A stretch of 64,000 nucleotides of DNA, from the sequence record PV574017.1. One strand, 5' to 3'. The position numbers and the translations under genes are program-made. Shown here piece by piece: positions 8,338-10,399 of the stretch (position 1 is the stretch's first letter; each line of letters begins with the position of its first letter). The DNA comes from Escherichia phage EcM-vB1. A model generated the notes under the pieces. It saw only the letters and a program-made list of their open reading frames with translations, made no database searches and was not told the DNA's origin.

Positions 8338-8416
8338 TCAATGGGTGCCTCTGATAAAGGGGCACAATTTAAAGGTTAATTAGATGAAAGGGTTTACCCT
8401 TCAGGTGGATTAGAAA

Positions 8417-10399
8417 ATTTGTGGCATCGTATTAGCTGGCGGTAATCTGTCAAGCACTGATTTAGACGTATTTAACCAACTCTTTTATGCTGGAGTATTC
8501 CGAGGACAACATTCCTCCGGTATCTTTGGTCAGCGTAAAAGTACTAAGGAAGTCTTCACTTATAAAGAAGCTCTTCCTTCTTTCGCATTCATCCTACAAG
8601 ATGAGTACAAGAAGCACACCACTGGTGAAACAGCTTACACTGTAGCACCTTCATGGATTGTTGGTCACAGCCGTCATGCAACGAAAGGTGCAGTTAACGC
8701 CAAGAACGCCCATCCTTTCCAACATGGTAACATCACTCTGGTTCATAATGGAACCTTGATGGACCAAGACCTGTTACCTGACAGTAAAAACTTCGAGGTA
8801 GATAGTGAGAACATCTGCCACTCTATTAACACTATTGGTGCAGCAGAGACTATTCAAAAGCTGGATGGTGCTTTCACCTTAATCTGGCATGATGCTTCTG
8901 ATAACCGCCTTCATATCATTCGTAACGAAGAGCGTCCTTTCCATCTCGCACGTTGTAACAGAGATTGGTTTGGCGCTTCTGAAGAAGATATGCTGATGTG
9001 GATTCTGAAGCGTTCGAAGTCTCACAAGAACCGTATTGATGAGCATTTTGAGTGTAAAGTTGGTACAGAGTATATCTTTGACATGTCTAATAACAGCATG
9101 ACACTGGTTGAAGAGGTCGCCCACGAGCTTCCGGTTTTTACGGTAGTCAATCGTTGGGGCAATTACTACTCGAACAATTACAGCCAAAGCAACTATCAAA
9201 GTTCCTCAAAAAGCAGTACAAGCAATCCTTACGACACGAAGCCGGGTGTGACAGCGGCAGACGTTCGTCGAAGAAACGCAGTGGTAAGTCAAAACAAAAT
9301 CGCAAGCGATCGAAACATTGATATTCGCCGAGATATGACTGTGGAAATCACTCCGCATGAGTTTGTTCCTTATGCAACTGCCGGTGCTGTTCCTTCTCGT
9401 GGTAAGATGATTGGTTATATCTACGATGAGAAATCTCAAGAGTATATCGAAGGTGATGTTCATAACGTAGACATTAAGGCTTATCAGGATGCCCTGAAAG
9501 ACCCTAAAATTGTTTACCGTGGGACAGTATCCTGCATCTCCGAAGTCAATGCTATGGTCCGTTTAGTGATCACAGCAGGTCGTTTTGTTGACCCATCTCT
9601 GGAGAAAAAGGAGCCTGAGTCAACTACTGCTGACTTCGATGATGATATCCCTTTTGATATGAATGATAGTTTCGTCAACAAGAATGGTGTTACTATCACT
9701 CGTAAATTCTGGGAAGCGCACTCTCATGGTGATTGTGGTGGTTGTGATAAGCACATTGATTGGAAGGATGCACCTAAAGCAGTCTTCGCATATCAGTGCT
9801 ATTGGCATCCTGAATGTCTGGAAGGTTTGACTAAACCTAAAGAGGAAGAAGAGGAGGAAACTCCTATTGGTGTTTGTGAAATCTGCGGTGAAGTTAAAAC
9901 AGAGAATGAGTTCGATGATGAACTTAGTCGTCTTCGTGGTGAAGATATCTGTAAAGTCTGCGCTGTAGAAGTAAAGAAGAAAGTGTCTAATGCTACGATC
10001 AAAGATGGTTATGTCTGGATTAAAGCAACAGATACAACAAACGCCCGTCGTCCTGAATTCGCTTTACGTGTAACTGAAGATATGATCGGTCGTATGACTG
10101 TATTACCTTCCTCAGCGAAACAGACAGGCATCACTCTGGAGGATGTTGTTGATGCTTATGTTGAGAAACGTAGCAACAGTATTTTTGCAATCTCAACTAA
10201 GCCAAAAAGGAGGAACCTGCTGAGAAAGCAGGTGTGTTTCCTGAATCACGAACAGCTCTCCGCAAAACTGTCGTCAGCTTCGACGGAAACCGAAGCACTG
10301 ACTTCACTAAAGCAATGTGGTCAACCCTCGGATACTGCTCAGAGTGTTTTAAGCAGATTCCGTGGCGCGATGCTGAAAGTTGTACGCTTGGTTCTATGA
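8417..10399 (+). CDS. class-II glutamine amidotransferase domain fused to an acidic, Cys-rich C-terminal region
   Basis: frame open from the TAG at 8411; Cys-Gly-Ile N-terminus, RGQHSSG, HSRHATKG, HPF, HNG motifs; no ATG/GTG/TTG before the Cys codon, only ATT at 8417 with AGGTGG 9 nt upstream; track calls only 8756-10399. Confidence 0.55.
   Translation: MCGIVLAGGNLSSTDLDVFNQLFYAGVFRGQHSSGIFGQRKSTKEVFTYKEALPSFAFILQDEYKKHTTGETAYTVAPSWIVGHSRHATKGAVNAKNAHPFQHGNITLVHNGTLMDQDLLPDSKNFEVDSENICHSINTIGAAETIQKLDGAFTLIWHDASDNRLHIIRNEERPFHLARCNRDWFGASEEDMLMWILKRSKSHKNRIDEHFECKVGTEYIFDMSNNSMTLVEEVAHELPVFTVVNRWGNYYSNNYSQSNYQSSSKSSTSNPYDTKPGVTAADVRRRNAVVSQNKIASDRNIDIRRDMTVEITPHEFVPYATAGAVPSRGKMIGYIYDEKSQEYIEGDVHNVDIKAYQDALKDPKIVYRGTVSCISEVNAMVRLVITAGRFVDPSLEKKEPESTTADFDDDIPFDMNDSFVNKNGVTITRKFWEAHSHGDCGGCDKHIDWKDAPKAVFAYQCYWHPECLEGLTKPKEEEEEETPIGVCEICGEVKTENEFDDELSRLRGEDICKVCAVEVKKKVSNATIKDGYVWIKATDTTNARRPEFALRVTEDMIGRMTVLPSSAKQTGITLEDVVDAYVEKRSNSIFAISTKPKRRNLLRKQVCFLNHEQLSAKLSSASTETEALTSLKQCGQPSDTAQSVLSRFRGAMLKVVRLVL

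Follow-up and report, generated by a model that had tools for sequence, protein, structure and literature searches.

A conserved ATT codon as the probable start of a class-II glutamine amidotransferase gene in phiEco32-like phages, and its hairpin-containing leader

Introduction

Initiation of translation at AUU is established for the Escherichia coli genes infC and pcnB, at about 1-15% of the level of AUG, and the initiation factor IF3 discriminates against this codon there. The output of AUU has been measured as ~1-3% of that of AUG or, in another system, as 6-8-fold below AUG. To our knowledge E. coli systems very rarely have a conserved AUU start, infC and pcnB being the only confirmed cases. 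The present analysis deals with the start region of a glutamine amidotransferase (GAT) gene of Escherichia phage EcM-vB1 (sequence record PV574017.1), located within positions 8,338-10,399 of a stretch of 64,000 nucleotides, hereafter the window. In this gene an ATT codon stands directly before the codon of the catalytic cysteine (Cys1).

The phage locus resembles infC and pcnB in three respects: (i) an AUU start preceded by a Shine-Dalgarno (SD) sequence; (ii) conservation among orthologues; (iii) an expected weak initiation, discriminated by IF3. With infC it also shares a stop codon placed 3 nt before AUU, as at the thrS-infC junction. It differs from both in that the upstream stop is not conserved across the lineages that share the leader cassette described below, and in that a covarying hairpin 5' of the SD is found in the phages only. 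Moreover, no autoregulatory logic comparable to that of infC is evident, the phage product being an amidotransferase and not an initiation factor.

At the protein level, the closest described enzymes are GlmS, PurF and AsnB. The phage protein shares with them an implied Met-Cys N-terminus, matches to GATase_6 and GATase_7 and the R, N-G and D residues. It differs by the fusion of this domain to a ~400-residue Cys-rich C-terminal region without Pfam match, by its location in an amidoligase/COOH-NH2 ligase/ATP-grasp cluster and by its non-canonical start. N-terminal nucleophile (Ntn) amidotransferases bearing a propeptide exist, e.g., Bacillus subtilis PurF. An open 12-codon extension before Cys in three relatives of the phage gene recalls the latter, whereas elsewhere this extension contains stops or lacks ATG, and it evolves like an RNA structure and not like a peptide. 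The nearest described gene is phi32_83 of phage phiEco32, with 97% nucleotide identity, an identical leader and a coding sequence (CDS) annotated from the same ATT; the window copy differs by a 1-nt deletion in a run of A that frameshifts the last ~65 codons.

The comparison of this locus with its homologues makes it quite probable that the gene encodes a functional Ntn amidotransferase whose translation would be initiated directly at AUU 8417, within a conserved leader cassette. The ATT start has been in the GenBank annotation of phiEco32 since 2008. No published discussion of this start or of the leader was found, in a search that did not cover the original phiEco32 papers. What is new here is (i) the comparative evidence for a conserved ATT start; (ii) the covarying cassette; (iii) its alternation with ATG leaders; (iv) the extent of mis-annotation.

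Results

Sequence of the start region

The window belongs to a phiEco32-like podophage of the genus Kuravirus. Phages EcK-vB, EcP-vB and ES17 match it at 100% over 2 kb, and its identity with phiEco32 is 97%. The features of the locus are collected in Table 1.

The base check agrees with the initial annotation on the opening of the frame by TAG (8411-8413), only AAA (8414-8416) and ATT preceding the Cys codon TGT. Read from TGT, the frame gives CGIVLAGGNLSS... (CGIVLAGG...) and stays open through to 10399; CGIVLAGG is an N-terminus typical of class-II amidotransferases. The initial annotation was also right that no canonical start precedes the catalytic Cys, since the earliest in-frame ATG, GTG or TTG is TTG 8756, 112 codons past Cys. 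The gap between stop and first canonical start, i.e., 114 codons, is the largest among the 49 long open reading frames (ORFs) of the window, the runner-up having 50.

The SD sequence AGGTGG was correctly located in the initial annotation, but not its distance of 9 nt to ATT: the spacer has 8 nt, and 9 is obtained by counting from the last G to the A. The energy of the duplex with the 3' tail of 16S rRNA (Table 1) is about the median for the genes of EcM-vB1. The duplex is weak for the in-frame ATG 8384 (-3.4 kcal/mol) and poor for TTG 8756 (-2.4 kcal/mol). An unusually strong SD offsetting AUU was considered and rejected, the SD being of median strength only. ATG 8384 had been missed so far; it starts a mini-ORF of 9 codons closed by TAG 8411.

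It must be noted that canonical starts overlap ATT out of frame within AUUUGUGG, namely TTG 8419 and GTG 8421, which would give peptides of 8 and 4 amino acids, respectively. Both could compete for ribosomes at the shared SD. GTG 8421 stems from the Cys-Gly codons (TGTGG) and is thus also present in homologues starting with ATG; TTG 8419 depends on the final T of ATT.

Table 1. Features of the amidotransferase leader and gene in the window (EcM-vB1, PV574017.1).
Feature	Position	Strand	Evidence and remarks
Terminator-like hairpin (GGUGCCUC / GGGGCACC)	8345..8365	+	Folding; follows the amidoligase gene ending at 8337
Conserved upstream block ATTTAAAGGTTAATTAG	8367..8383	+	Aligns with the TTAAATGT(T)TAATAG motif of relatives
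Mini-ORF ATG AAA GGG TTT ACC CTT CAG GTG GAT TAG (MKGFTLQVD, stop)	8384..8413	+	Translation; probably incidental
RNA hairpin AAGGG-UUUA-CCCUU	8388..8401	+	Covariation; one base (C8402) before the ribosome-binding site
Shine-Dalgarno sequence AGGTGG	8403..8408	+	Duplex with the 16S 3' tail, -5.9 kcal/mol
A/U-rich spacer ATTAGAAA, including TAG 8411-8413	8409..8416	+	Alignment of relatives
ATT, putative initiation codon	8417..8419	+	Conservation and existing annotations
TGT, catalytic Cys1 of the Ntn (class II) glutaminase domain	8420..8422	+	Cys1 invariant in the nine-homologue alignment
Glutamine amidotransferase gene, phi32_83 homologue	8417..10399	+	Pfam; last ~65 codons out of frame in the assembly

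Conservation of ATT and coding constraint

The 70-nt leader is found in 98 phage records, i.e., 96 of E. coli or Shigella phages and two of Aeromonas phage BUCT695. In the former, leader differences are restricted to positions outside the core; the BUCT695 records have two substitutions in the core. The leader is also present in seven metagenome contigs and in one contig mis-binned into a metagenome-assembled genome (MAG). This last contig (CALKAR010000070.1, L113 in the numbering of loci and lineages used here) is phiEco32-like, 8 kb long and placed in the MAG "uncultured Peptococcaceae"; a binning contamination is likely.

ATT is invariant in every phiEco32-like genome examined, and the ATT-Cys junction is found in 11 further lineages. 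The comparison with homologous phage genes, suggested in the initial annotation, thus finds ATT conserved in many diverged lineages. In one metagenome variant the Cys codon is replaced by its synonym TGC and the adjoining ATT is unchanged.

Relative to phage ECBP2, whose coding DNA is ~76% identical here, positions 8367-8424 form an exact block of 58 nt. This block ranks ~11th of the 236 exact runs of at least 20 nt across the 64-kb window; it is notable, not unique. The same comparison gives ~400 near-identical nucleotides at 19241-19649, with uninterrupted matches of 198, 101 and 108 nt; this greatly exceeds the level of the genome as a whole, and the segment is either very constrained or recently exchanged. 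In BUCT695, a phage of another family, the GAT coding sequence has 59% nucleotide identity, and 43% at third positions, against 38 of 40 identical positions in the leader core, TAG AAA ATT TGT included.

The 112 codons before the first canonical start were compared between the genera Kuravirus, Suseptimavirus and Nieuwekanaalvirus. The ratio of nonsynonymous to synonymous substitution rates (dN/dS) is 0.07-0.11 (~0.08), with saturated synonymous sites, and differences are mostly at third positions (e.g., 21/15/65 by codon position). Such a strong purifying selection means that these codons are translated. The orthologue in phage SU10, gp85, was detected by mass spectrometry with 9 peptides (PMC4281155).

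These data bear on the possibility of a dead or truncated gene, in which ATT would be a mutated ATG or an error, and in which either nothing or a protein devoid of glutaminase, started at TTG 8756, would be made. Many GenBank records annotate downstream starts, and the assembly has two homopolymer indels in neighbouring genes, as this explanation would have it. However, ~96 independent genomes, and metagenomes as well, share the ATT, no catalytic residue varies, the stretch before TTG 8756 is under the constraint just described and the SD of TTG 8756 is poor. In the other genera the first canonical codon is codon 10 or codon 45, so no alternative start is conserved. This explanation, already contradicted by the comparative data, retains hardly any probability. 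The mutated ATG and inactive enzyme considered in the initial annotation do not fit an ATT fixed in three genera and beyond, with intact catalytic residues and an expressed orthologue in SU10. The corrected sequence envisaged there, with a true ATG before TGT, is at odds with the presence of identical bases in 98 records of phages and in metagenomes assembled independently. As far as the compared sequences tell, ATT-Cys is neither a sequencing error nor a recent knockout.

Annotation of the start is heterogeneous. The phi32_83 CDS of phiEco32 (EU330206 / NC_010324) starts at this ATT (position 2118 of that locus, window 8417), likewise the CDS in RefSeq and BASEL-collection records. Among the matches listed, 8 of the 58 phiEco32-like rows have a CDS over ATT; the others start downstream or leave the leader unannotated. 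A search of a large protein collection with the BUCT695 GAT gave 120 cluster representatives, 93 of which begin with MCG and several with MKGFTLQVDYSLCGIV, MKGLALQVDYKICGIV or MKEFTLQVDYKICGIV. At least 11 of the 120 are of the ATT type, nine being truncated and two extended from an upstream ATG.

The enzyme

GAT matches GATase_6 (PF13522) at 6e-15 (55.8 bits, cut-off 27) and GATase_7 (PF13537) at 2e-6 (28.1 bits, cut-off 25) in Pfam. Nine homologues, combined in a profile, match the glutaminase cores of GlmS, PurF and AsnB; in the alignment to GlmS 1xff (IAHTRWAT...NAHP...VHNG) the R and N-G of GAT line up with the core. Cys1, Arg85, Asn110-Gly111 and Asp128 are all invariant in the nine diverse homologues, the assignment of Asp128 to the active site being by position and motif only. 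The residues that class-II enzymes use for glutamine binding and for the oxyanion are the Arg of HxRxAT, the Asn-Gly of HNG and the Asp of DSE. Cys1 is kept in all 63 metagenome loci with an aligned N-terminus. A single-sequence AlphaFold2 model of GAT has a mean pLDDT (per-residue model confidence) of 34.8, too low to read the four-layer Ntn alpha-beta-beta-alpha fold. Most likely, the product of the gene is an active glutamine amidotransferase of class II (Ntn), as its motifs and their conservation suggest.

The C-terminal two-thirds of the protein (9220-10399) have no Pfam match. They comprise a linker rich in Ser, Asn and Tyr; zinc-ribbon-like modules are suggested by several CxxC pairs (HGDCGGCDKH..., CEICGEV...CKVCA).

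Codon preceding Cys1 in homologues

The codon before Cys1 in the 63 metagenomic homologues with an aligned N-terminus is ATG (51), GTG (3), ATT (7) or ATC (1, L103); the remaining locus, L049, reads ATG TGC TGT. In the clade of C3-morphotype-like phages it is ATT in 12 lineages, TTG in 4 and ATG in 8. The ATT, ATG and TTG types are interspersed in a neighbour-joining tree of the N-domain, where the following are neighbours: L126 (ATT) and phage 7-11 (ATG); L116 (ATT) and L040 (ATG); L121 (ATT) and L038 (ATG); L115 (TTG) and L041 (ATG).

Only codons competent for initiation, i.e., ATG, TTG, GTG, ATT and ATC, are seen at this position. The Ile codon of a propeptide should drift to ATC, ATA, GTT or CTT, and the position thus appears to act as a start codon. 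The proposal of the initial annotation that ATT is a rare start is upheld: the codon is conserved in diverged lineages and alternates only with the four others, the SD spacing is fixed at 8 nt and the N-terminal codons are under purifying selection.

L103 (contig Ga0080064_1000500) has ATC before Cys1 in the segment TAA AGG AGA TAT ATC ATC TGT (1183-1203), with the SD AAAGGAG, no hairpin and no canonical in-frame start for 175 codons. Since its near relatives L100 and L101 have ATG, this ATC may have arisen by a mutation in this locus alone or by misassembly. A depletion of in-frame canonical starts after a weak start was considered: there are none in 112 codons of the window and none in 170 of L103. 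It was rejected as a general feature, the other ATT lineages having 3-11 such starts versus a mean of 5.3 in ATG homologues.

The hairpin-SD-AUU cassette

In the ATT lineages the codon is part of a cassette with the following layout: a hairpin of 5-6 bp, 1-3 nt, the SD, AUUA[G/U]AAA, AUU and UGU. In the ungapped alignment 100% of the cells of the hairpin are paired and 2 of the 5 pairs show double changes, a result matched by 9 of 500 shuffles. Compensatory stems are found in L117 (AAGAG/CUCUU) and L123 (AGGGG/CCCCU), and only loop bases are altered in BUCT695 and L116. In terms of the mini-ORF, the changes at codons 3-5 either affect loop bases of the hairpin or restore pairing in its stem.

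Distant lineages have other stems at the same place, i.e., CAAGGC/GCCUUG in L118, AAGGGA/UCCCUU in L121, AAGAUC/GAUCUU in L105, GUCGG/CCGAC in L127 and CAAGCU/AGCUUG in L128. The last two were found with a pattern that fixes the spacer and ATT, and only their hairpins are independent; these are an independent confirmation because the hairpin was absent from the search pattern. Stem sequence and loop vary freely, so the role of the hairpin would be structural and not that of a sequence-specific protein site. It may insulate the SD, stabilise the 5' end or assist 30S binding and initiation at a weak codon.

The SD of the relatives is AGGUGG, AGGCGG, GGAGAGG or GGAGG, and its spacing is kept in all cassette lineages. 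The spacer is AUUAGAAA in 7 lineages, AUUAUAAA in 5 and AUUAUAGU in L115. A stop codon in the spacer is thus not required: 7 lineages have TAG and 6 do not.

The hairpin is present in 12 of 12 cassette leaders (11 ATT, 1 TTG) and in none of the 8 ATG leaders. Fisher's test on these related sequences, with no phylogenetic correction, gives p = 3e-4, and 1e-3 with the phiEco32 group counted once. SD strength is similar in cassette leaders and ATG leaders.

A covariance model found no second copy of the cassette in the 64-kb window. The search of 8250-8550 against Rfam 15 (E up to 10) gave no meaningful match, the best reaching 16.7 bits versus a gathering score of 44; Rfam families, glutamine riboswitches included, were thus rejected as an identity of the leader. 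No similarity to E. coli DNA was found that would indicate mimicry by the leader. An alternative hairpin sequestering the SD (GGUUUACC/GGUGGAUU), taken from the minimum free energy fold, was also discarded: both BUCT695 substitutions break its pairing.

Readthrough and reinitiation from the upstream ATG

The mini-ORF is in frame with GAT, and its TAG is followed by A. Its ribosomes could reach GAT by rare readthrough of UAG 8411; the extension MKGFTLQVD-X-KI would then be cut autocatalytically, freeing Cys1 as in propeptide-bearing enzymes. Three relatives have an open 12-codon run, MKGFTLQVDYSL-C, MKGLALQVDYKI-C or MKEFTLQVDYKI-C, with TAT (Tyr) replacing the TAG of the window. Against this, the cassette lacks the upstream ATG in L118, L121 and L128, two of which (L121, L128) keep TAG AAA ATT TGT; L118 has an additional in-frame TAG before the SD and L126 has two in-frame TAGs. 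The 12 codons of the putative propeptide show 7 changes of nonsynonymous type versus 1 synonymous, with conserved third positions; they affect the hairpin loop or keep the stem paired, whereas the changes directly after Cys are all synonymous. TAG is an ordinary stop in EcM-vB1, closing 5 of 47 long ORFs. No suppressor tRNA was found in the window, and ECBP2 has only a tRNA-Arg. The SD of ATG 8384 is weak, as said above. Owing to missing ATGs, extra stops and substitutions unlike those of a peptide, readthrough is rejected as a general mechanism, and in EcM-vB1 it is very improbable. The initial annotation was essentially right to require Cys at the N-terminus of Ntn amidotransferases, but it overlooks the propeptide-bearing members, whose route is unlikely here.

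The same mini-ORF could act by termination and reinitiation, i.e., translation up to UAG 8411 and restart 3 nt further on at AUU; in the phiEco32 group efficient use of AUU would then depend on the mini-ORF. The layout is that of infC, where a stop is followed after 3 nt by AUU (UAA GGU AUU, at the end of thrS) and where reinitiation and de novo initiation contribute about equally (PMC3592434). ATG 8384 and TAG are invariant in all phiEco32-like genomes, BUCT695, L122 and L123. However, ATG is missing from the cassette of L118, L121 and L128, TAT replaces TAG in 6 lineages, the SD of the mini-ORF is weak and a promoter-like motif of relatives, described below, puts the predicted transcription start at or after ATG. 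As the explanation of the ATT start, reinitiation is improbable, somewhat less so than readthrough; it is a possible minor addition to direct initiation in EcM-vB1 and not an alternative to it. In L118, L121, L126 and L128, AUU is the sole in-frame option, because the upstream ATG is missing or in-frame stops intervene.

Elements upstream of the cassette

The terminator-like hairpin that follows the amidoligase gene has the stem GCGCUC/GGGCGC in ECBP2/SU7, i.e., with a compensatory change from U-A to C-G. No U-tract was found at this hairpin, which from its fold may be a 3' stabiliser or a weak terminator. Record WFI101126 annotates a terminator around 8345-8365.

The motif TTAAATGT(T)TAATAG lies directly 5' of the cassette in many relatives (L008, L115-L117, L122, L123). 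It resembles the consensus of promoters read by the phiEco32 sigma factor gp36, tAATGTATAtA, which is located 6-8 nt before the transcription start (PMC4281155). With the motif in this position, the 5' end of the mRNA would be about at the hairpin and the upstream ATG would not be transcribed in these relatives. The core of the motif is altered in the phiEco32 group and in L121 (AAAGGT in the window, or AAAAGG), which suggests that these have lost a gp36-type promoter. Such a promoter was rejected for 8367-8383 of EcM-vB1, where there is no match within 2 mismatches; for this reason promoter activity of the block is doubtful. A search for sigma-70 promoters around the leader gave no match on the + strand. 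GAT of the phiEco32 group is probably read from upstream early promoters, so that the mini-ORF could be translated.

Gene cluster and assembly

The order of the cluster is COOH-NH2 ligase, a hypothetical gene, amidoligase, GAT, two small genes and ATP-grasp ligase. A small gene of the DUF7195 family (PF23825) lies 3' of GAT in every relative retrieved (L115-L126), with a RimK/ATP-grasp gene further on. GAT, DUF7195 and RimK/ATP-grasp are a conserved module. In two lineages an HNH endonuclease gene is inserted between amidoligase and GAT, adjoining the leader (L119, 182-592; L121, 102-518). In Bas89 an HNH gene is found just downstream of GAT, and the annotation joins two segments to make up the COOH-NH2 ligase CDS.

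Two homopolymer deletions are located within 1.2 kb. At 10199-10204 the window has a run of A5 versus A6 in phiEco32, and this 1-nt deletion frameshifts the last ~65 codons of GAT; in the window a separate ORF (10234-10446) encodes the residues that end the phiEco32 protein (...CNSPKCSLNRG). At ~11315-11320 a run of C5 versus C6 splits the ATP-grasp gene (phi32_80, 1194 nt) into ORFs 10890-11345 and 11372-12082. The deletion near 10204, which the EcP-vB annotation shares, probably reflects a sequencing error in the homopolymer. Resequencing, proposed in the initial annotation for the start, is warranted at these two runs and not at ATT.

Discussion

The proposed mechanism is a direct start of translation at AUU 8417, which would be read as formylmethionine by the initiator tRNA. 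The SD AGGUGG would position AUU across the 8-nt A/U-rich spacer. Removal of Met would then expose the catalytic Cys1, the expected N-terminal peptide being CGIVLAGGNLSSTDLDVFNQLFYAGVFR. Translation from AUU would be weak and probably sensitive to IF3. Since Cys must be residue 1, the position of the start cannot move; with a fixed start, expression would be tunable only through the start codon and its context. Start codon and leader would thus be toggled, between the cassette and a plain, hairpin-free ATG leader, to set the level of translation.

Several points weigh against this proposal: (i) the proteomics of SU10 searched a truncated database entry, and the N-terminus was thus unobserved (PMC4281155); (ii) because the SD is only of median strength, the output of AUU should be low; (iii) the leader is invariant within the phiEco32 group, so that ATG and TAG of the mini-ORF could still matter there; (iv) the association of hairpin and start type is drawn from related sequences; (v) two of the lineages were retrieved with spacer and ATT already fixed. 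As for TAG 8411, it is speculated that it may stop ribosomes started upstream, which would make an extended, inactive enzyme.

A wider reading is that the cassette is a dedicated, hitherto undescribed translational control unit, in which the hairpin is functionally tied to the weak AUU, and that it is exchanged between phages as different as the coliphages of Kuravirus and relatives, Aeromonas phage BUCT695 and uncultured metagenome lineages. This reading is tentative, and we hold it to be rather doubtful at present. If it were true, the hairpin might, for example, raise the efficiency of initiation at AUU or make it depend on IF3 or on the state of the ribosomes in the infected cell, and the cassette would determine how much of the enzyme is made, or when, its start position being locked by the N-terminal nucleophile.

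For the records of these phages, it must be noted that the truncated annotation found in most therapeutic-candidate coliphage records and metagenome gene calls removes the catalytic Cys. For their biology, the chemistry of the enzyme, with Cys as residue 1, fixes the start, and the locus would be a natural case of expression tuned by toggling between ATG, TTG and ATT. The small hairpin-SD-AUU cassette could reveal in what way the surrounding mRNA supports or controls initiation at non-canonical codons.

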